64,000 nucleotides of DNA from Patescibacteria group bacterium (GTDB lineage: Bacteria; Patescibacteriota; Minisyncoccia; Phycocordibacterales; UBA9973). The notes beneath the pieces are model-generated. The model was not told the DNA's origin, did not search any database, and saw only the letters and a program-made list of their open reading frames with translations. The position numbers were made by a program, and so were the translations under genes. Where the stretch lies: assembly GCA_028868715.1 (NCBI GenBank), contig JAGWUB010000001.1, positions 247,206-311,205 of the forward strand, in the 5' to 3' direction. Positions 1,709 through 62,983 of this stretch are shown in pieces. The stretch's first letter is position 1; each line of letters opens with the position of its first letter.

Positions 1709-4700
1709 ATGAAAACTCTAAATACAACTGAATTTGATCAAATTGCGCTAAGGCTTGCATCCCCAGAGCAAATCCAAGAATGGTCTTTTGGTGAAGTCAC
1801 AAAACCAGAGACAATAAATTACCGAACTGGTCGCAGTGAACGCGGAGGTCTTTTTGACGAGAAAATCTTTGGTCCAGAGAAAGATTATGAATGTTACTGC
1901 GGAAAATATCGCAGAATTCGTTACAAGGATATTATTTGTGAAAAATGTGGAGTGGAAGTTACTCGTTCTATCGTCAGAAGAGAGCGAATGGGCCATATTG
2001 AGCTCGCTACTCCTGTGTCACATATTTGGTTTTTACGTGGAGTACCTTCTCGTATGAGTATTCTTTTGAATATTTCTGTTTCTGATCTTGAGAAAGTGAT
2101 CTACTTTGCTGGATACATAATTGTTAAAGTTCACGAGGAAGAGAAAAAAACTATAATTTCTAATTTGGAAAAAGAATATAAATCTAAATTAAAAAATTCG
2201 ACCGATGATGACGTCCGCGAAAAATTAAAGAGCCTACTTTCTATTACTAAAAAAGAAATAACAGAAATTTATGAAGGTAAGGTTCTAAATGAAATTTCTT
2301 TTCATCATTATTCTTTAAAATACGGAACTTGCTTTGAAGCTAATATCGGCGCAGAAGCTATTTATTCTATTTTTAAGAATCTAGATTTAAATAAATTAAA
2401 AATTCACACCGAAGCTATGTTGGAGAAGTCTAGTGTAGCTGAAAAAGAAAAATTACAGAAAAGACTTTCCTTAATTCGCGCTATGACTTATGCGGGAATT
2501 CGACCTGAATGGATGTTTTTGACTGTTATTCCCGTTATCCCACCTGTGCTTCGCCCGATGGTGGCGCTAGATGGTGGTAGACATGCAACTTCTGACCTAA
2601 ACGATCTTTATCGTAGAGTTATCAATAGAAATAATCGTTTAAAGAAATTGAAGGAAATAAATGCTCCGGATGTTATTCTTCGAAACGAAAAAAGAATTAT
2701 CCAAGAAGCAGTAGATGCCTTGATCGATAACTCAATTGCTAAACAAAACGACTCTACGGCAATGAGTCAATCCCAGAGACGTCCACTCAAATCTCTTTCT
2801 GATAACCTAAAATCCAAGCAAGGTCTTTTCCGTCAAAACTTACTTGGAAAGCGTGTGGACTATTCAGGTCGTTCAGTTATTGTCGTCGGTCCTGAGCTAA
2901 AGCTTAATCAATGTGGATTGCCGAAACATATGGCGCTGGAACTCTTTAGACCATTTGTAATTTCCAAGATTTTACAAGCTGAACTTGCTTTTAATATTCG
3001 TGGAGCTAACAAACTTATAGAGGAACGTGAAGGAGTTATCTGGGCAATATTGGAAGAAATCATCGAGGGTAAATATGTTCTTCTAAACCGCGCGCCAACC
3101 CTGCACCGTTTAGGTATTCAAGCTTTCAATCCGATTCTAATTGAAGGAAATGCTATTCAAGTACACCCACTAGTCTGTGAAGCTTTCAACGCTGACTTCG
3201 ACGGAGACCAAATGGCTGTCTACGTTCCTCTTTTGGAGGAAGCACAATCTGAAGCAAAGGAATTGATGGCGGCAAACAAAAACTTGCTTAAGCCACAAAA
3301 TGGAGATCCAATCGTTCACCCTAGTAAGGATATAGTGCTTGGAAGTTATTGGATGACCAAAGATATCACTGGAGAAGAAGGAGAAGGAAAATATTTCTCA
3401 AATCCCAACACAGCCATTTTAGCATTTGAATATGGAGTCGTATCTCTCCGAGCTAAAATAAACGTGCTGGCTACTGATCGAGAAAAATACAAAAAATTTA
3501 ATGGAGGAATGTTTGAAACCTCAGTTGGAAAACTTCTTTTCAATAGTATTTTGCCAAATGATTTTTCTTATGTGAATGATGAAATGACTCAAGGAAGACT
3601 ATCCTCACTCTTAGATGAGCTCATTATGCAATACGGCGTAGATGATACCCCTCCAATCTTGGACAAGATTAAAGCTTTCGGCTTTAAGTATTCAACAGTT
3701 TCTGGTACTACTTGGGGATTGGACAATGTCAGTGTGCCTACTCAAAAACCAAAAATTATAGAAAAAAGTAAAATTTTAGAAGAAGAAATTATATCACAAT
3801 GGAGCGACGGTCTGCTTTCAGGGGAAGAAAAATATCAAAAGGTTATTGAAATCTGGGCAAGTGCTAAAAAAGAATTAGAGAAAATTTTGCCAAGTACTCT
3901 TGATATTAATGGATCTACCTATGACCTGTTTACTTCTAAGGCTAGAGGTACCATGACTTCTCTGGTTCAGATGATCGGAATGAAAGGACTTATTCAAAAC
4001 AACCAAGGTAAAACATTGGAATTTCCAATTATTTCTTGTTACCAAGAAGGACTTTCTCCACTCGAATATTTCATAACCACTCACGGAGCTAGAAAAGGAG
4101 CATCAGATACCGCTCTTAATACCGCAAAGGCTGGGTACCTAACTCGAAGATTAGTTGACGTGGCGCAGGACGTGGTTATCACTGAAGAAGACTGTGGCAC
4201 CAAAGAAGGAAAGATAGTCTCAGCTGAAAATATTTCTGGAATTGAAATACCACTTTCAAAAAATATTCGTGGAAGAGTTTTGGCTGGCGATCTAAAAGAT
4301 GAATCTGGTAAAGTTGTCTACAAGAAAGGATTTTTAGTTACTAAAGAAGAAGCTTACAAAATAGAAAAGCAGGGCTTCAAGGAAGTATTTGTTCGTTCTC
4401 CACTTACTTGTCATACAGTGCATGGACTTTGCGTGATGTGTTATGGACTCGATTTGGGGCGAAACCACTTGGTGCAACTAGGTGAAGCTGTCGGGATTAT
4501 TGCGGCTCAAGCCATCGGCGAACCAGGAACCCAGCTTACGCTTCGTACCTTCCACGCTGGAGGTGTCGCCGGTACAGATATCACTACAGGTTTACCACGT
4601 ATTGAAGAAATATTTGAAAGAAGAATTCCTAAAAATCCAGCAATTGTTTCCGAGACAGACGGAGAAGTTATTTCTATCACCTCTAAGGATGGAGAAGAAA

Positions 4701-11488: not shown

Positions 11489-11564
11489 TGGAGCCGGAAG
11501 AGGGATTCGAACCCACGACCTTCGCTTTACAAAAGCGTTGCTCTACCAACTGAGCTATTCCGGC
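11489..11564 (-). tRNA. tRNA, probably tRNA-Thr (anticodon UGU)
   Basis: The minus-strand cloverleaf has acceptor GCCGGAA/TTCCGGC, a GTTCGAATC T-loop, anticodon loop TTTGTAA and an encoded CCA. Confidence 0.8.
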
Positions 11565-20229: not shown

Positions 20230-20526
20230 AGCCTTGTGTTAGATAGCTACTCTTCGATTTATATCGGAGAGAGGAAAGTCCGAACACATAGCCCTTTGGG
20301 TTAAACGTAGCGGGTAATTCCCGTCGTCCGCAAGGATAGAGGTGCGAACAGAGACGAGCTCCTTTAGTGGAGGTGAAACGGCAAAATCCTTACGCGTGTG
20401 CAAGATCGTGCTCCGACCTCGGTCGGAGAGAATCGCTTGAGTCCTGTAGTAATGCAGGACCTAGACAAATTGCTATCGCTCCGACCTCGGTCGGGGTCAC
20501 AAAATTCGGCTTATAGACACAAGGCT
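20230..20526 (+). ncRNA. rnpB: RNase P RNA (bacterial type, compact)
   Basis: P4 strands GAGAGGAAAGTCCGAACAC and ACAAAATTCGGCTTATA. A GGTGAAACGG motif. The P1 helix closes as AGCCTTGTGT...ACACAAGGCT. Confidence 0.85.
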
Positions 20527-20534
20527 AAAACATG

Positions 20535-21614: not shown

Positions 21615-21688
21615 GGGCCCTTAGCTCATCTGGCTAGAGCGCCTCATTTGCAATGAGGAGGTGGCAGGTTCGAGTCCTGTAGGGTCCA
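21615..21688 (+). tRNA. tRNA-Ala (anticodon UGC)
   Basis: Cloverleaf with acceptor GGGCCCT/AGGGTCC including the G3:U70 Ala identity pair. Anticodon loop TTTGCAA. Confidence 0.88.
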
Positions 21689-21708
21689 CCGAAAAGTTAG
21701 TTATTTTT

Positions 21709-21783
21709 TCCGGGGTAGCTCAGCGGTAGAGCGGTCGCCTGTTAAGCGATTGGTCGTAGGTTCGATCCCTACCCCCGGAGCCA
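21709..21783 (+). tRNA. tRNA-Asn (anticodon GUU)
   Basis: Cloverleaf with acceptor TCCGGGG/CCCCGGA, anticodon loop CTGTTAA, T-loop TTCGATC and an encoded CCA. Confidence 0.88.
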
Positions 21784-28376: not shown

Positions 28377-28385
28377 AGTTTCAAT

Positions 28386-28418
28386 AAAAAAAACACCCTA
28401 GCGAGGGTGTTTTTTTTA
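28386..28418. terminator. bidirectional rho-independent terminator
   Basis: A-run, CACCCT-AGCG-AGGGTG stem, then T-run. Confidence 0.75.
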
Positions 28419-28434
28419 TAATAATTAAGAATAA

Positions 28435-32302: not shown

Positions 32303-33799
32303 ATGGAAGGGCTCGATGACAAAAAAAAAGGATCCAACCTGCGTTGGTGGATATTACTTACCGTTATAATTGGAACTTTTTTAGGTCGCCTAGATCAAAC
32401 GATAGTGAACTTGGCTCTGCCAAAAATCATTAATGATTTTGGCATTTCGGTTACCGCGGCTGGATGGATAGCTACAGCTTATATTTTAGCTAATGCTGTT
32501 TTCGTGCCGATTTGGGGTAAATTGGGCGATACTATTGGAAGAAAAAAAGTTTACATTATTGGTTTCAGTATTTTTATTTTCGGTTCTGTCTTGGCGGGAC
32601 TTTCATGGAATCTTTCTTCAATGATTGTCTTTCGGGTGATTCAAGCTATAGCCGGATCAGCTGATTATCCGACAGCCATGGCGATATTAGCCGTGACTTT
32701 CAAAAATGGAAAAGAACGTGCGCAAGCACTCGGCATTTGGTCCTCTTCTTTCGCCGCCGCGGCTGTTTTTGGACCACTTTTAGGTGGTCCTTTGATAGAC
32801 AATTTTGGCTGGCGTTCAGTTTTTCTAATCAATCTTCCAATTGGTATTTTAGGTATCATCATGGCCGTTCGTTTTATCAATGAATCACGTTCAGAACAAA
32901 AAACCACATACTTTGATTGGTGGGGATCGCTTTCATTGGGAGGTATGCTTTCTATGTTGGTGCTCGTTTTAGACAAAGGATTAACTTGGGGTTGGTTTTC
33001 AACCGCAAGTCTAATATGTTACTTTTTGATAATTTTCCTCTTGTGGTTATTTATCAGAATAGAAAAAAATGCCAAAGACCCGATTGTGGATTTGCGTTTT
33101 TTCAAAATTCCTGCTTTTGTCAATACTCTGATTAATAACTTTATTGTTTTTATGGGTATGATTGGCGGAATTTTCTTGATACCTATATTTGCGCAAACGT
33201 TTCTCGGGTATACCGCTACTCAATCAGGATATCTTTTTATTCCGATGGCTGCAGCCTTGATGCTAGCAGCTCCAATAGGAGGCGCACTGACTGGGCGAGT
33301 CCAAGCGCGCTACGTGATTTTTGCCAGTACCTTGGTGGCAGCCATCGGTATTTATTTCTTCTCCTTTCTTGATCCCAAGTCCGGTGCTCTGGCTATAATA
33401 ATTCCGCTTTCGGTCATGGCTTTTGGTCTTGGTTTTGGAATGGCGCAACGAACGAATGTTATTGCTTCCGTAGTAAACCCAAATGAAATCGGCATTGCTT
33501 CTTCAATTTTGGCCCTAGCTCGCAATATTGCTGGCGCTTTTGGAATTGCTATTTTTGGAACAATTTTAACAAACCGAGTTTATACAAACGTAATGTCTAT
33601 AAACAATTTTAGCGTTATTCGTAGTACCAATCCGATTGATATAAGTAAATACGTTGGACTAGTAGAACTAAAAGCTCAAGTCAATGCTTACAACTATGTT
33701 TTTTTGGTTGCATCCATTATAGTTTTTGTCGGAGCCTTTGCGGTGCTCTTTATGAAAATTAAACATGAACGCACGGATATAACTGTGCACGTAGAGTAA
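32303..33799 (+). CDS. MFS drug:H+ antiporter, DHA2 (EmrB/QacA-like, 14 TM helices)
   Basis: Motifs LPKIINDFGISVTAAGWIATAYILANAVFVPIWGKLGDTIGRKKVYIIG and VFRVIQAIAG. 498 aa. Confidence 0.85.
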   Translation: MEGLDDKKKGSNLRWWILLTVIIGTFLGRLDQTIVNLALPKIINDFGISVTAAGWIATAYILANAVFVPIWGKLGDTIGRKKVYIIGFSIFIFGSVLAGLSWNLSSMIVFRVIQAIAGSADYPTAMAILAVTFKNGKERAQALGIWSSSFAAAAVFGPLLGGPLIDNFGWRSVFLINLPIGILGIIMAVRFINESRSEQKTTYFDWWGSLSLGGMLSMLVLVLDKGLTWGWFSTASLICYFLIIFLLWLFIRIEKNAKDPIVDLRFFKIPAFVNTLINNFIVFMGMIGGIFLIPIFAQTFLGYTATQSGYLFIPMAAALMLAAPIGGALTGRVQARYVIFASTLVAAIGIYFFSFLDPKSGALAIIIPLSVMAFGLGFGMAQRTNVIASVVNPNEIGIASSILALARNIAGAFGIAIFGTILTNRVYTNVMSINNFSVIRSTNPIDISKYVGLVELKAQVNAYNYVFLVASIIVFVGAFAVLFMKIKHERTDITVHVE

Positions 33800-49815: not shown

Positions 49816-50214
49816 ATGCGAATAAATTTACAAGGCAAAAATATTGAGTTAACGGAGCCTATCAAAGATTATGTTTTAAAGAGAGTAACTAACTTGGAAA
49901 AATTACTTTCTGGGATTGAAAAAGGGGGAGGGGAAGTAGCAGTCACGTTTGAAGTTGGTAAAAGCACCAAGCATCACAAAGGAACTTCTATTTTTAATGC
50001 TTATTGTTTAATCAATACCAATGGCGAAGAATTTTATTCTAGCGCTGATGAGGAGGATTTATATACCGCGATTGATATAGTTAAAGAAAATCTCTTTAGG
50101 GAAATAAATAAAAACAAAGATCGTAAAAAGACATTGTTTAAACGAGGAGCCATGAGCGTCAAAAAAATGCTCAAAGGTCTTTCCAAGCGAAATCCTTTTA
50201 CTTCTAAGTACTAA
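49816..50214 (+). CDS. hpf: ribosome hibernation-promoting factor / RaiA family
   Basis: MRINLQGKNIELTEPIKDYVLKRVTNLEKLL...EDLYTAIDIVKENLFREINKNKDRKK. Confidence 0.85.
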   Translation: MRINLQGKNIELTEPIKDYVLKRVTNLEKLLSGIEKGGGEVAVTFEVGKSTKHHKGTSIFNAYCLINTNGEEFYSSADEEDLYTAIDIVKENLFREINKNKDRKKTLFKRGAMSVKKMLKGLSKRNPFTSKY

Positions 50215-51107
50215 TTTTTATAATCCATTTCTTTACCTCCCTCGGGGATAATTTTTTCTATAATGAATTGGTTATTTTCTAATTTTGCTTTAGTAATTAT
50301 TATTCTTTTTCCATCCTTAAAGAAGTAAGTTCTAGGCCAAGTGGCATAGGCACGAAATTTATTGTAATTTTTAACCGAGTCGTCAGAAAGATCTATTAAC
50401 CCATCTTCTTTTTTTATTTTAGTACAATAAGTTGCTTTTGTTTCATCTTGTCGAGTTGTTTTAATTGTTCCAGCTATAAATTCCGGTAGAGTTTTTACCA
50501 GAAGCTCACCTCCAAGTTTTATCAATCGCTTGCGAAGTTCTGGGGATTTTTCATCTGGCATTATTTCTGTCTTATCTATAGCAATGATTGGCCCGGAATC
50601 CATTTTGAATTCCATTTGTTGAATAGTTACCCCCGTCTCTGTGTCGCCATTTAAAATAGCAGATTCCACCGGTGAAGCTCCGCGATATTTAGGAAGCAAA
50701 GAATAGTGAAGGTTTATAGAGCCTAGCTTTGGTAGCTTCAGTATATTTTCTGGAATTATTTTTCCGTAAGCTACGACTAAGAAGAGCTCGGGGATATTTT
50801 TGCTTACACGCATATCCTGCTGGTGCAGGATTGCTTTTCTCGGCTCGTCAGCCTGCGAAGAGATCGCAAAAATATCCCCGAGCTCTTCTTTGAGTTTCTC
50901 TGGTTGTATGTATGGAATATTATTTTCCATAGCCCAAACCTTGGCTGGTGGGGGAGTAATGACCATTTTACGCCCCTGTGGGCGGTCAGGAGCAGTTACA
51001 ATAAGACTAGGTATATATCCAGCACTCTTTAGTATTTCCAAAGTCTCACTGGCCACATCTGGAGTACCCCAAAATACAAAATTTAACTTTTTACTATTAT
51101 CTTGCAT
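50211..51107 (-). CDS. fmt: methionyl-tRNA formyltransferase with a short in-frame repeat-derived insertion
   Basis: NFVFWGTPDVASETL and SINLHYSLLPKYRGASPVESAILNGDTETGVTIQ. Confidence 0.9.
   Translation of the reverse strand: MQDNSKKLNFVFWGTPDVASETLEILKSAGYIPSLIVTAPDRPQGRKMVITPPPAKVWAMENNIPYIQPEKLKEELGDIFAISSQADEPRKAILHQQDMRVSKNIPELFLVVAYGKIIPENILKLPKLGSINLHYSLLPKYRGASPVESAILNGDTETGVTIQQMEFKMDSGPIIAIDKTEIMPDEKSPELRKRLIKLGGELLVKTLPEFIAGTIKTTRQDETKATYCTKIKKEDGLIDLSDDSVKNYNKFRAYATWPRTYFFKDGKRIIITKAKLENNQFIIEKIIPEGGKEMDYKN
50800..50880. repeat. degenerate copy of the GC-rich palindromic element, inserted in frame in fmt
   Basis: TCTCGGCTCGTCAGCCTGCGAAGAGA matches the 25-nt core of the def element at 21/22 positions. 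An adjacent palindrome is ATCCTGCTGGTGCAGGAT. It encodes ..SSQADEPRKAILHQQD.. in fmt. Confidence 0.6.
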
Positions 51108-51111
51108 ATTA

Positions 51112-51693
51112 TTACTTAGGAAGTTCTTCTTTCACCTCCTTGGCATGGTCTATAAACAGTATGCCATTTAGGTGGTCGGTTTCGTGTTGGAAAATTTGAG
51201 CGAGCAAACCAGATGCTCCGCGAGTAAATTTTTTACCGTTTTCATCGTAAGCGGTGACAGTGGCTTTTTTTGATCTATTAACTTTTCCATAAAGCCAGCG
51301 GACAGAAAGGCACCCCTCTGGCAACCATTCCTTTTCACGCGAAAGTTTGGAAATTTTTGGATTGATAAACACCATATCTTTCTCCGCAGACTTTCTCAGA
51401 GCGGGGTCGCTATCTGTGCGTGCTCGCACAGCGCTCCCTCTCGGCTCGTCAACCTGCGAGAGACCCCGCCTTGAGAAGTCTGCTCCGAAAATTTTTCCTG
51501 ATACAACAAAAATTCTCAGGCTGTAACCAATCTGTGGAGCAGCTATGGCTACACCATCATGCTGGCTAGAGAGGGCCACAGACATCTCTTTTAATATCTT
51601 TTTTATTTTCGTAGTTTTAATATCTGGCAAAAGTACCTCTTTGGCAACTTTCCGCAAAGTCTTCTCTTTTTGTTGAAGAATTTTTTTTGGCAT
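51112..51693 (-). CDS. def: peptide deformylase carrying a 32-aa in-frame insertion between motifs 1 and 2
   Basis: Motif 1 GVAIAAPQIG, motif 2 EGCLS and motif 3 QHETDHLNG are present. The motif 1 to motif 2 spacing is about twice the usual. Confidence 0.9.
   Translation of the reverse strand: MPKKILQQKEKTLRKVAKEVLLPDIKTTKIKKILKEMSVALSSQHDGVAIAAPQIGYSLRIFVVSGKIFGADFSRRGLSQVDEPRGSAVRARTDSDPALRKSAEKDMVFINPKISKLSREKEWLPEGCLSVRWLYGKVNRSKKATVTAYDENGKKFTRGASGLLAQIFQHETDHLNGILFIDHAKEVKEELPK
51387..51482. repeat. 96-nt GC-rich MITE/RPE-like element with 22-bp terminal inverted repeats, inserted in frame in def
   Basis: CAGACTTTCTCAGAGCGGGGTC ... GACCCCGCCTTGAGAAGTCTG. An internal palindrome is GTGCGTGCTCGCAC. 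The core is TCTCGGCTCGTCAACCTGCGAGAGA. Length is 32 codons. Confidence 0.7.
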
Positions 51694-60875: not shown

Positions 60876-61886
60876 ATGTTAAATCCAGATTTAAAATTAA
60901 ATCCAAAAATTTTCAATGACGATGTCGCGCAAGCACCGATCCGAAAAGGCTTCGGGGAGGGGTTAGTTTTAGCTGGGGATCAGGATAAAAATGTAGTGGC
61001 CCTTTGCGCCGATTTGACCGAGTCCACCCAAATGATTTTTTTTAAAGAAAAGTTTCCAGAGAGATTTGTGGAAATTGGTGTGGCTGAACAAAATCTCGTT
61101 ACGGTTGCTTCTGGGATGGCAGCAATGGGCAAAATTCCTTTTTGTTCTTCTTATGCGATGTTTTCTCCGGGGAGAAATTGGGAACAAATCAGGACAACCA
61201 TAGCTTACAACGACCGACCGGTAAAAATAATTGGTTCACATGCGGGTATTTCTGTCGGACCGGATGGTGGCACACATCAAGCCCTGGAAGACATTGCTCT
61301 CATGCGCGTGGTACCAAACATGGAAGTCATTTCTCCTTGTGATTCAATTGAAGCCAAAAAAGCAACTCAAGCAATTACCAAAACTGGCAAACCAGCATAT
61401 TTACGACTAGCTAGAGAGAAAACTCCCATAGTCACCACAGAAGAAACTCCATTTACGCTTGGCAAGGCCGAAGTTTATTGGATGCCAGATGTGGGCATTC
61501 CTCAGGTAGGAATAATAGTAACTGGTGGGTTGATGCATCGGGCCCTACTCGCTGCTAAAGAATTACAAGACCAAGAGGAGCCACAGCGAATTAAAACAAA
61601 AGTAATGAATCTTTCATGCATCAAGCCGATAGATGTGAAAGCTATTGTGGCTTTAGCAAAAGAATGTAAAGCAATCGTAACTGTGGAGGAGCATCAAGTT
61701 GCTGGTGGAATGGGATCGGTAGTAGCAGAGGTACTCTCGCAAAATTTTCCGGTGCCGATGGAATTTGTCGGCGTGCAAGATAAGTTTGGGCAAAGCGGTA
61801 CACCAGACGAACTCATAGAACATTATGGTATGGGAAAAAATTCTATCAAAGAAGCGGTGAGGAAAGTGCTAAAACGAAAAATCTAG
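60876..61886 (+). CDS. tkt: transketolase, C-terminal (pyrimidine-binding) subunit
   Basis: FVEIGVAEQNLVTVASGMAAMG...SHAGISVGPDGGTHQALEDIALMR. Confidence 0.85.
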   Translation: MLNPDLKLNPKIFNDDVAQAPIRKGFGEGLVLAGDQDKNVVALCADLTESTQMIFFKEKFPERFVEIGVAEQNLVTVASGMAAMGKIPFCSSYAMFSPGRNWEQIRTTIAYNDRPVKIIGSHAGISVGPDGGTHQALEDIALMRVVPNMEVISPCDSIEAKKATQAITKTGKPAYLRLAREKTPIVTTEETPFTLGKAEVYWMPDVGIPQVGIIVTGGLMHRALLAAKELQDQEEPQRIKTKVMNLSCIKPIDVKAIVALAKECKAIVTVEEHQVAGGMGSVVAEVLSQNFPVPMEFVGVQDKFGQSGTPDELIEHYGMGKNSIKEAVRKVLKRKI

Positions 61887-61985
61887 GAAAGAGTTTTTAT
61901 AAAGCAATCTATCTGGCGTTGCTACGCCAGCGAACCTGCTCGGGCCGACGCCCTTGCGCAAGACTTTCTAAAAACTCTTTCCTAG
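61884..61985. mobile_element. 102-nt GC-rich MITE-like palindromic element between convergent tkt and pfkB. It has perfect 17-bp terminal inverted repeats.
   Basis: CTAGGAAAGAGTTTTTA ... TAAAAACTCTTTCCTAG. Internal hairpins are CTGGCG-TTGCTA-CGCCAG and GGGC-CGAC-GCCC. The two CTAG ends supply the TAG stop codons of both flanking genes. Confidence 0.65.
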
Positions 61986-62983
61986 ATCCTATTGGCCTTG
62001 TAGTTTGCAGGTGCGTTTTTTAGATATTCCTCTAGCTTTTCTCTGGATAAAAGTCCTGCTTGAGCACCGACTTTTTGCACTACAGACATAGAATTTACTG
62101 GCCCCCAAGCAAATGCTTCTAGAGGAGATTTTCCCAGAGCGAGTCCTGCTGTAATAGTGGAAGAAAAAGCATCTCCGGCACCAGTGCGCTCTAGTGGTGG
62201 AGCGATGTCAGGATATATTGGGATTTTCCATAGCTCATCATTTAAATATAAATATGCTCCGTTTGGCCCATCGCTAATACAAACTATTTTTGGTCCGAGA
62301 GCCATTAAGCCTTTTGATAAAGTAAGCACGTCTTTGCCTTCAATTCCCAAGATTTTTTCGGCTTCTTCCAGATTGCAGAAAAATATTTCTGTTCGTGCAT
62401 ATATTTCTTTTAATTTTTCTGCACCAAATTTTATTTGAAATGTTCCCGGCTGGAAAGCTAGCTTGGTTTCTGGGTGATTCTTTAAAAATTCTATTATAGC
62501 CAAATGATAGGGCAGGGAATGCTCTGCCAAAGAACTCAAGTAAATCCAGGATATTTTAGGTAATTTTGGAAGTTTGTATTCAAATTCCGTGTGTTTGATT
62601 AAAATTGTTCGATCAATATCGTACCACAAAACATAGTGGTAATTTGTAATTTTGTCTTTTTCAATTGCTATGTATTCTGTCGTTACTTTTTCATTTTTTA
62701 ATGACTCTAAGCAATCATTGCCATGTTTATCATTTCCAATACTGGCCACGAGTCCGACGTTTAGTCCTAGGCGTGAAGCTGAGACTGCCGCATTTGGGCT
62801 ATTGCCAACTGCTGGTACCACGGTTACAGATTCATAGGGAACTTTATCTCCAAAACGAAAACAAAGTTCACACGCATCTGTATCTATTCGGCAATGTACG
62901 TGGGCATCGTTTAATTTTATAAATGCATCTATGACAATGTCTCCAATTGCCAAAAGATCTATTTCACCCTCTTTTTCGTTCAT
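61982..62983 (-). CDS. PfkB-family carbohydrate kinase (ribokinase-like)
   Basis: C-terminal TGAGDAF motif. An N-terminal GG pattern. Confidence 0.75.
   Translation of the reverse strand: MNEKEGEIDLLAIGDIVIDAFIKLNDAHVHCRIDTDACELCFRFGDKVPYESVTVVPAVGNSPNAAVSASRLGLNVGLVASIGNDKHGNDCLESLKNEKVTTEYIAIEKDKITNYHYVLWYDIDRTILIKHTEFEYKLPKLPKISWIYLSSLAEHSLPYHLAIIEFLKNHPETKLAFQPGTFQIKFGAEKLKEIYARTEIFFCNLEEAEKILGIEGKDVLTLSKGLMALGPKIVCISDGPNGAYLYLNDELWKIPIYPDIAPPLERTGAGDAFSSTITAGLALGKSPLEAFAWGPVNSMSVVQKVGAQAGLLSREKLEEYLKNAPANYKANRI

Follow-up and report, generated by a model that had tools for sequence, protein, structure and literature searches.

A palindromic repeat probably translated in frame within fmt and other housekeeping genes of Patescibacteria

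Introduction

The Rickettsia palindromic elements (RPEs; Ogata et al. 2000, 2002) are palindromic repeats of 100-150 bp that, according to later reports (PMC10969869, PMC1779305), occur both between genes and in frame within housekeeping genes, and are translated. These reports also state that the encoded peptide segments fit the fold of the host protein, that some insertions are old and clade-wide, that no transposase is known and that the hosts have reduced, host-dependent genomes; another source (PMC6649704) reports that RPEs lose repeat identity over time. Here we describe a 112-nt palindromic element in the methionyl-tRNA formyltransferase gene fmt of a Patescibacteria group bacterium (GenBank assembly GCA_028868715.1, contig JAGWUB010000001.1, positions 247,206 to 311,205; this stretch of 64,000 nt is called the window, and positions are counted from its first nucleotide). 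The fmt segment is very probably a translated member of a widespread family of palindromic repeats.

Other described elements bear comparison. Intragenic repetitive extragenic palindromic (REP) sequences of the GTAG and CGTC types are GC-rich palindromes, formed as single stem-loops of 20-40 bp whose stem foot is marked by GTAG or CGTC; many lie in replication and repair genes, CGTC REPs have no dedicated transposase, and dimers can form long hairpins (PMC3733652). [quoted passage not shown] The coding palindromes of Nematomorpha mitochondria have two coding arms whose identity is apparently maintained, and their authors proposed template switching or conversion and a parasitic character (PMC6649704).

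Results

Palindromic element in the fmt gene

The fmt gene (50211..51107, minus strand; 298 aa; Pfam Formyl_trans_N and Formyl_trans_C) contains an element of 112 nt at 50779..50890 (minus strand), which is read through as Fmt residues ~K73-L110. Strand A denotes the strand that reads CTCGGCTCGTCAGCCTGCGA, which is the plus strand of the window for all three copies found in it, and strand B its complement, which reads TCGCAGGCTGACGAGCCGAG and is the sense strand of fmt and def. The most conspicuous feature of the fmt element, missed in the initial annotation of this region, is a pair of perfect 25-nt inverted arms with 62 nt in between. The left arm AAGAAGAGCTCGGGGATATTTTTGC (50779..50803) is 100% complementary to 50866-50890 and, as the 3' arm of the sense strand, encodes SKNIPELFL; the right arm GCAAAAATATCCCCGAGCTCTTCTT (50866..50890), the sense-strand 5' arm, encodes KEELGDIFA. 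Between them lie hairpin 1 (50814..50831; 7-bp stem, 4-nt loop) and hairpin 2 (50837..50859), the conserved core, which includes the 20-mer CTCGGCTCGTCAGCCTGCGA at 50839-50858 and encodes SQADEPR on the sense strand. A covariance model of the family matches 50778-50890 with 71 bits, and the minimum free energy of the fold is -65.8 kcal/mol (z = -10.1).

A sister copy is hosted by the adjacent gene def (peptide deformylase, 193 aa; 51112..51693, minus strand; Pfam Pep_deformylase). It occupies 51378..51491 (minus strand; 92 bits), is read through as ~G71-A104 of Def, and has imperfect arms at ~51386-51411 and ~51459-51487, similar in length to those in fmt, with the core 20-mer at 51440-51459. 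Its minimum free energy is -61.1 kcal/mol (z = -6). Both segments fold alike, into a Y shape in which a long basal stem bears two hairpins.

The initial annotation had taken the fmt segment for a second member, inserted in frame, of the repeat family seen in def, and both alignment and covariance model support this. The 26-mer quoted there from fmt, TCTCGGCTCGTCAGCCTGCGAAGAGA, is located at 50838-50863 of the plus strand and has its def counterpart at 51439-51459. The match of 21/22 nt then reported was slightly generous yet essentially right: 20/21 nt are common to the two copies (TCTCGGCTCGTCA[G/A]CCTGCGA), or 20/26 over the whole 26-mer, and the copies diverge beyond. This similarity persists under careful alignment and is beyond chance, as had been claimed: GGCTCGTCARCCTGC occurs exactly twice in the window, and the covariance model recovers the def copy, the fmt copy and a third, intergenic copy at E = 8e-27, 5.5e-20 and 1.5e-12, respectively. 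In both host genes the core is read in the same frame on the sense (minus) strand, with SQADEPR in Fmt and SQVDEPR in Def. Two details needed revision. The element covers the interval first proposed (50800-50880, 80 nt) but extends beyond it to the 112 nt given above, and the supposed 18-bp perfect palindrome ATCCTGCTGGTGCAGGAT (50814-50831) is really the variable hairpin 1, the loop of which is TGGT. The fmt and def copies represent different subfamilies, neither being a recent copy of the other, and both insertions are old and common to many species.

The Pfam Formyl_trans_N match runs across the insert. The initial estimate of ~20 extra residues agrees with the 23-24 aa by which Fmt exceeds close homologues that have no element (P0120, 275 aa; P0077 and P0119, 274 aa). 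The AlphaFold model of Fmt has a mean predicted local distance difference test (pLDDT) score of 85, with residues 76-103 below 50; these residues are encoded by the element and lie between QPEKLKEE and the LFLVV strand, so that the insert is predicted to form a disordered surface loop. Predicted peptides across such inserts include ...DIFAISSQADEPR, AILHQQDMR and AISSQADEPR.

Distribution and consensus of the repeat family

The 20-nt core was scanned against one genome per species, and loci were fetched by the exact 20-mer. It is present at at least 118 loci in about 100 species-level genomes, nearly all of them Patescibacteria metagenome-assembled genomes (MAGs; all genomes considered here are MAGs), labeled Nomurabacteria, Paceibacterota, Kaiserbacteria, Minisyncoccia, Zambryskiibacteriota, Moraniibacteriota or 'Saccharibacteria'. 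Two loci from outside Patescibacteria (L048, L104) were rejected as bare 20-mer matches that arose by chance in GC-rich genomes. Some labels look unreliable: many of the loci L003-L117 are titled 'uncultured Candidatus Saccharibacteria' and L117 'Burkholderiales', and Def and Fmt of the so-labeled loci L005, L030, L067, L103, L111 and L117 are 47-82% identical to those of the window.

An alignment of 108 copies, chosen by the core motif, was used to build the covariance model. Its consensus consists of an arm, GGGGTCGCTGTCT, hairpin 1, AGCGCTGCCT, CTCGGCTCGTCAGCCTGCGAG (hairpin 2), ACACCCC and the other arm. Hairpin 1 has a stem of 5-7 bp and a YGCU loop, its sequence being variable and its pairing constant; hairpin 2, CTCGGCTCGTCAGCCTGCGAG, is almost invariant. 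The copies fall into at least three subfamilies, among which the def copy represents the main type, the fmt copy the 'ACGCATA...TTGCTTTT' type, and the intergenic copy of the window is related to the 'AAGCAATCTATCT...AGCGAACTT' type. In 850 kb of fetched related loci the model finds 135 matches, ~19 of which lack the exact core, and copy density is roughly one per 20-50 kb. Several genomes hold three or four copies, some with identical arms at different sites.

No Rfam family reached the gathering threshold anywhere in the window, and even at E <= 10 none overlapped the elements in 50760-51510. The IMG/VR viral contigs contain no match to the element, and carriage by phages was rejected on this ground; full-text literature searches returned no description of such an element for Patescibacteria. 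The family is best described as GC-rich palindromic ('foldback') repeats of ~85-115 bp that are specific to Patescibacteria, namely to the Paceibacteria / Nomurabacteria / Kaiserbacteria section of the candidate phyla radiation (CPR).

A few copies are atypical. The copy at L118:7681-7834 spans 154 nt and has an apparently expanded hairpin 1, and a truncated copy at L098:5401-5504 lacks the 5' half. Two def genes (L103:5709-6290 and L005:1134-1682) have a loop as long as that of element-bearing genes, AT-rich and with no recognizable core; these loops are possibly fully decayed copies.

Host genes and reading frames

About 60% of the copies lie deep inside long open reading frames (ORFs), and the others include intergenic copies. 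The hosts are intact housekeeping genes of at least 15 families by Pfam, among them UvrD, Tgt, TsaD, class-I aminoacyl-tRNA synthetases (IleS/LeuS), the CCA-adding enzyme, UvrB, an RluD-type pseudouridine synthase, a GlmM-like mutase, Dus, Fpg, Def and Fmt; inspection by eye added RecG and a ComEA-like protein. The adjacency of the two hosts def and fmt, which had seemed striking at first, is therefore incidental. The loop encoded by the element has ~15-37 residues. The element is absent from Def of L070, L117, L116, L028 and L119, and Def homologues without it are 15-16 aa shorter.

Sixty-three of the 70 deep-ORF copies use only two of the six frames, with one codon phase per orientation: frame A0 (..GSLS..LPLGSSACETP..) in 32/70 and frame B0 (..GVSQADEPRGSA..DSDP..) in 31/70. 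The remaining few belong to a subfamily with a junction 1 nt shorter or to spurious ORFs in GC-rich genomes. One strand-B frame always contains TGA and two other frames often have stops, and there is no stop codon in the reading frame of any intragenic copy. That the copies keep so strictly to two frames speaks for translation of the element and against its removal. Removal before or during translation, by a tiny intron or by ribosome bypass like that of the mitochondrial 'byps', would be helped by strong hairpins that bring the segment ends together, and bypassed mobile GC-rich palindromes are known from yeast mitochondria (as cited in PMC6649704). Yet removal would lift the frame constraint just described, the arm-to-arm length of 112 nt in fmt is not a multiple of 3, and no ribozyme or intron family matches; we give this explanation almost no chance. 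Two RNA motifs were considered and rejected. A hammerhead or other ribozyme is suggested by CUGACGAG and GUC on strand B, but the element lacks GAAA and space for stem I, and Rfam has no match. A K-turn in hairpin 2 was dismissed on inspection, the bulged strand having no G-A step.

Conservation of pairing and overlap of the arms with host codons

Pairing is conserved across the family. In the 108 copies 92.7% of the cells are paired, as against 71% in shuffles and 38-47% with slid partners, and double-changed cells number 625 against 175. In hairpin 1, double changes occur in 39-62 of the 108 sequences per pair, 97% of cells are paired, and G:U and A:C each account for about 1%; we infer that the constraint acts on DNA and not on RNA. 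Among the 108 aligned copies, for which this motif was the selection criterion, hairpin 2 does not vary; elsewhere it has compensatory variants: GGCC/GGCC in L121, and GGGC/GCCC in the third copy of the window and in 'SQGDGPR' Def proteins.

The arms have a mean length of 23 nt at 90% complementarity, compared with 8.5 nt when an arm is paired with that of another element, and only their inner ~10 nt (cTTTnnGGGG) are common to 28 host sites. Since the two arms of one element are more alike (identity 0.82-0.87) than orthologous arms of different species (0.63-0.78), they evolve in concert. In fmt the palindrome reaches native codons. How far the 3' arm extends over the codons for the conserved (P)(D/E)(L/F)F(L) VVAYG strand depends on the lineage: it ends 1 nt before the VV codons in the window, 2 nt into them in L119, 7 nt before them in L116 and 9 nt before them in L028, L084 and L070. 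It thus covers the E-L-F-L codons of the native beta-strand in the window and P-D-F-F-L-V in L119. Where the native codons differ, as in L119 (GATTTCTTT = GAT TTC TTT, DFF) and L121 (GACCTCTTT = GAC CTC TTT, DLF), the opposite arm co-varies (AAAGAAATC = AAA GAA ATC, KEI, and AAAGAGGTC = AAA GAG GTC, KEV, respectively). In def of L121, 28-nt arms extend to the conserved KIF codons. The L119 fmt copy has lost the hairpin-2 core and kept an arm pairing of 24/26 and a perfect 9-bp hairpin 1.

As to where the arms came from, the def 5' arm (ADFSRRG) looks homologous to native KDFVRGE, but the resemblance is ambiguous and maybe a coincidence. The proposal that the arms derive wholly from host flank at insertion, as an inverted target duplication, is weakened by long arms common to paralogues and by the family-wide inner ~10 nt. 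Neither simple model accounts well for the length gaps against empty sites, which are +23-24 aa for Fmt and +15-16 aa for Def.

The orientation of the element relative to host transcription is about 50:50 overall and varies by host, with A:B counts of 13:1 in Tgt, 5:0 in IleS/LeuS, 5:2 in TsaD and 7:12 in UvrD. These counts bear on the idea that the hisS-def-fmt mRNA contains a cis-acting RNA structure selected for its effect on host gene expression, such as an RNase III site, a stabilizer or a translational pause. Such a role could draw on the perfect 25-bp stem of the fmt copy, on the fact that the sense strand of def and fmt is strand B, the better-folding one (see Discussion), and on the strand-B-sense orientation of the element in nearly all Def and Fmt homologues. 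However, in Tgt, IleS/LeuS and TsaD it mostly points the other way, many copies lie between genes, wobble pairs in hairpin 1 are as rare as A:C, close relatives manage without the element, and the same element sits in so many unrelated genes. A cis role in mRNA is unlikely given the overall balance of orientations, and we assign it a small chance.

Inversion in place

An insert at the same site is present in most of the 120 closest Fmt homologues and takes several forms: the fmt type (B orientation), a diverged form TLGRSDGDGQRKFSAENF, and the main type, either in B (P0040, P0071) or in A orientation (P0025, P0030, P0090). The peptides encoded in opposite orientations are unrelated (SQADEPR... 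versus ...LGSSACE). In fmt, two loci with the element in A orientation (L028, L084) and two in B orientation (L070, L117) have the same site-specific outer arms TCYGGYAAGGAT/ATCCTTRCCRGA, between which the core and the inner arms are reversed, asymmetric mismatches included. Outside the insert, Fmt proteins of A type and B type share 85% identity, a value equal to that among A-type proteins. In def, L122 has the element in A orientation with homologous arms, and both orientations at one orthologous site also occur in UvrD, TsaD and Tgt. The same outer arms around a reversed core and the equal similarity of Fmt across orientations indicate that the opposite orientations are inversions of a resident element and not independent insertions.

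When copies were flipped in silico, the ORF stayed open in 46/67 of them in the codon phase actually used, compared with 4/67 and 26/67 in the other phases, arm indels blurring the test; the phase used is thus the one most tolerant of both orientations. The stricter proposal that only one codon phase is open in both orientations is only partly true, as these counts for the other phases show, the TGA frame being always closed.

The initial annotation had held that conservation of the Fmt segment's amino-acid sequence among distant relatives would speak against an inserted repeat. Most related Fmt proteins do have a segment at this site, but its peptides are unrelated between orientations. Because both orientations occur, encoding unrelated peptides, and some close relatives have no segment, it is DNA and not amino-acid sequence that is conserved at the fmt site. 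The same evidence bears on a protein-level adaptation, whether as a useful surface loop or as an invertible coding switch that gives two loop isoforms. For such a role speak the in-frame and stop-free state of the element, the hydrophilic, low-complexity peptides of the two used frames and the occurrence of inversion in place. Against it, the two orientations give unrelated peptides at one site, the loop is predicted to be disordered, and 15 or more unrelated enzymes contain the same peptide, while the same DNA is also found between genes. In addition, paired arm changes alter residues on both sides, which indicates a constraint on pairing and not on the peptide. An adaptation of this kind has, in our view, a very slight chance.

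One locus (L122:2111-3010, fmt) has a different insert at the same Fmt site (..TSPLSRGRIGGGLENLD..) with another hairpin (CCTCCCCC...GGGGGAGG), and hairpin-forming inserts seem to have a hot spot in the Fmt loop.

Copies with common arms in single genomes

Two genomes have the same long arms at different sites, CAYGDB01 (L025, L068, L097, L107) and CAYVZB01 (L041, L051, L063). The presence of three or four copies with the same long arms in single genomes shows that the element multiplies together with its arms. The four paralogues of CAYGDB01 form a subfamily with conserved ~40-nt arms that end in (Y)GTGAATTACGAAACTC. The three CAYVZB01 copies are near-identical, have an extra 3' module ending in the palindrome AATACAAATGCATTTGTATT, and look like a composite repeat unit.

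Other features of the window

The third copy of the family in the window (61877..61990, plus strand; 48 bits) is intergenic and was first flagged by an inverted-repeat scan (61881-61987). Its 24-nt arms, 61881-61904 and 61964-61987, are complementary at 23/24 positions. It is flanked by convergent genes, the C-terminal part of transketolase (60876-61886, plus strand) and a PfkB kinase (61982-62983, minus strand), and its arms (ATCTAG.../...CTAGAT) give both of them their last Ile codon and stop codon. By the covariance model there are exactly three copies in the window and nothing else below E = 0.4; a fourth candidate at 3195-3301 (E = 0.47) was dismissed, as it lies inside a long ORF and has no features of the element.

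Two further inverted repeats were noted. An imperfect one of 30 nt (73% complementary) with a GC-rich interior at 33239-33351 lies in ORF 32303-33799 (a major facilitator superfamily (MFS)-type transporter by eye) and has no match by the family covariance model; it may be a coding palindrome outside the family or a copy that has decayed very far. A perfect 16-nt repeat with a 4-nt loop at 28384-28419 (ATAAAAAAAACACCCT / AGGGTGTTTTTTTTAT) looks like a bidirectional intrinsic terminator. The window also contains a class A RNase P RNA (122 bits) and three tRNA genes (Thr-tgt, Ala-tgc and Asn-gtt), at 20231-20529, 11489-11564 and 21615-21783.

Discussion

The observations are probably best explained by an RPE-like, MITE-like palindromic DNA element that is translated as a disordered loop and the arms of which are kept and extended by DNA-level conversion. 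Such an element would spread as DNA to intergenic sites and genes; in essential genes, only in-frame, stop-free insertions in surface loops would survive, to be translated as a disordered loop of the length given above. A fixed copy would persist long, as its presence at the same site in many species suggests, and exchange between the arms could invert its core in place. Paired DNA changes, arising through template switching in replication or through repair or conversion in extruded hairpins, would hold the arms and hairpin 1 complementary, and the same conversion process would let the palindrome grow outward into host codons, where selection may then permit changes on the less constrained side only. 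We hold a selfish, conversion-maintained mechanism with moderate confidence, and a single-stranded intermediate may be involved. The same caution extends to the word 'selfish' used in the initial annotation: core conservation and strand asymmetry are incompletely explained by it, and no transposase was found in the fetched loci.

Several observations weigh against this explanation. The first is a strand asymmetry. With each combination of site, position and type counted once, arm mismatches comprise 81 of G:T type and 99 purine:purine on strand B, compared with 25 and 10 on strand A, and the bias is the same whether the host reads strand A, the host reads strand B or the copy is intergenic. 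Folding is better for strand B in 105/108 copies with RNA parameters and 106/108 with DNA parameters, and at 46-48 of 54 host sites when the arms alone are folded; its unpaired positions are purine-rich. The asymmetry points to a functional single strand and is not predicted by a purely double-stranded process; it would agree better with a single-stranded DNA intermediate or with strand-specific binding than with a cis role in mRNA. The second is the degree of conservation, since hairpin 2 and the junction are near-invariant over about 100 species, more than a decaying selfish element should show. The invariance of hairpin 2 is partly due to ascertainment, the loci having been fetched by the 20-mer, and diverged cores exist. 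Furthermore, the 850 kb of fetched loci contain no transposase, autonomous parent, split or ORF-bearing copy, or lone terminal repeat. Target-site duplication is not evident at the window copies; in three of the four CAYGDB01 copies AT-rich direct repeats of 6-8 nt (TTTAAAA, TTTATA, ATCAYAGA) lie near the ends at varying offsets, and they may represent such a duplication. Lastly, the number of copies whose ORF stays open after inversion in silico implies that not every copy can flip freely.

The same asymmetry would be accounted for by a functional single-stranded device, namely the Y fold of strand B (TCGCAGGCTGACGAGCCGAG) with hairpin 2 as recognition site and the arms as a mere clamp, which would serve either as a single-stranded DNA substrate of a structure-specific recombinase or transposase, or as DNA or RNA bound by a conserved host protein. 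Better folding of strand B, its purine-rich unpaired positions and its mismatch types, alike in sense, antisense and intergenic copies, speak for such a device. The invariant loop and internal loop of hairpin 2, the stem of which changes in compensatory fashion (GGCU/AGCC to GGCC/GGCC or to GGGC/GCCC), agree with it as well, and the motif has no Rfam match and hence would be an undescribed one. On the other hand, no associated gene was found, the L119 copy persists with intact arms after the loss of its hairpin-2 core, some close relatives do without the element, and the variant of an RNA acting in cis is disfavored by the balanced orientation to host mRNA. We consider a separate device unlikely; if the enzyme were the element's own mobilizing machinery, it would overlap with the RPE-like explanation. 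As a further, tentative possibility, the element may be a structure-defined, self-maintaining or mobile DNA of a new kind, in which the Y-shaped strand-B core is handled by strand-specific machinery and the arm clamp is copied from, and grows into, the host flank. If this is true, essential genes gain self-extending, invertible coding palindromes, both arms of which co-evolve with native codons.

Among described elements the RPEs are the closest analogue, and the Patescibacteria element probably works like an RPE or a MITE without, in all likelihood, belonging to either family; to the RPEs it is an analogue at most. Likeness to RPEs lies in size (112 nt with 25-nt arms, three copies in 64 kb), in-frame read-through in unrelated genes, the coexistence of intergenic and genic copies, old clade-wide insertions, the lack of a known transposase and the reduced genomes of host-dependent bacteria. 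Unlike RPEs, it belongs to the phylum Patescibacteria, from the MAGs of which all hits come, and its sequence is probably unrelated. What is conserved in it is a Y-shaped core, one hairpin of which is invariant, flanked by site-specific outer arms that are maintained and extended, not decaying, and it shows both orientations at orthologous sites and a consistent strand asymmetry. With REPs it has in common that short GC-rich palindromes occur within coding regions, many of them repair genes, but there is no tag at the stem foot, CGTC being in the hairpin 2 loop, the structure is a three-way junction of ~110 nt, and more than half of the copies are intragenic. MITEs resemble it as small multicopy repeats, particularly the CAYGDB01 subfamily with its conserved ~40-nt ends at four sites of one genome; in most other copies, however, the terminal repeats are not conserved between sites apart from the inner ~10 nt, the conserved part is internal, and neither a parent insertion sequence in the fetched loci nor a clear target-site duplication was found. 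The Nematomorpha palindromes are likewise translated inverted repeats with coding arms of seemingly maintained identity, but they are long perfect repeats with no conserved core and no multicopy family, whereas in Patescibacteria a mobile core seeds the palindrome.

In integron attC sites and the forked hairpin of phage CTX, imperfect hairpins of 60-140 nt retain their structure while the sequence varies, and one strand is active. The Patescibacteria element resembles them in the precedence of structure over sequence and in its strand bias, a likeness that serves only as a lead for explaining the asymmetry; inspection by eye showed no R'/R'' core sites, and an integrase or Xer context is lacking.

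If the RPE-like explanation is correct, in-frame 'selfish DNA', so far a hallmark of Rickettsia, is also widespread in CPR/Patescibacteria, another reduced, host-dependent lineage. It would account for many unexplained inserts of 15-35 residues in CPR proteins, which affect alignments, phylogenies, structure prediction and the annotation of uncultured organisms. The strand asymmetry and the invariant hairpin hint at an undiscovered mobilizing or binding activity, and the 20-mer core could mark this clade. The family offers a natural experiment in how hairpin-forming DNA survives in essential genes, through paired changes with native codons, growth of the palindrome and inversion.

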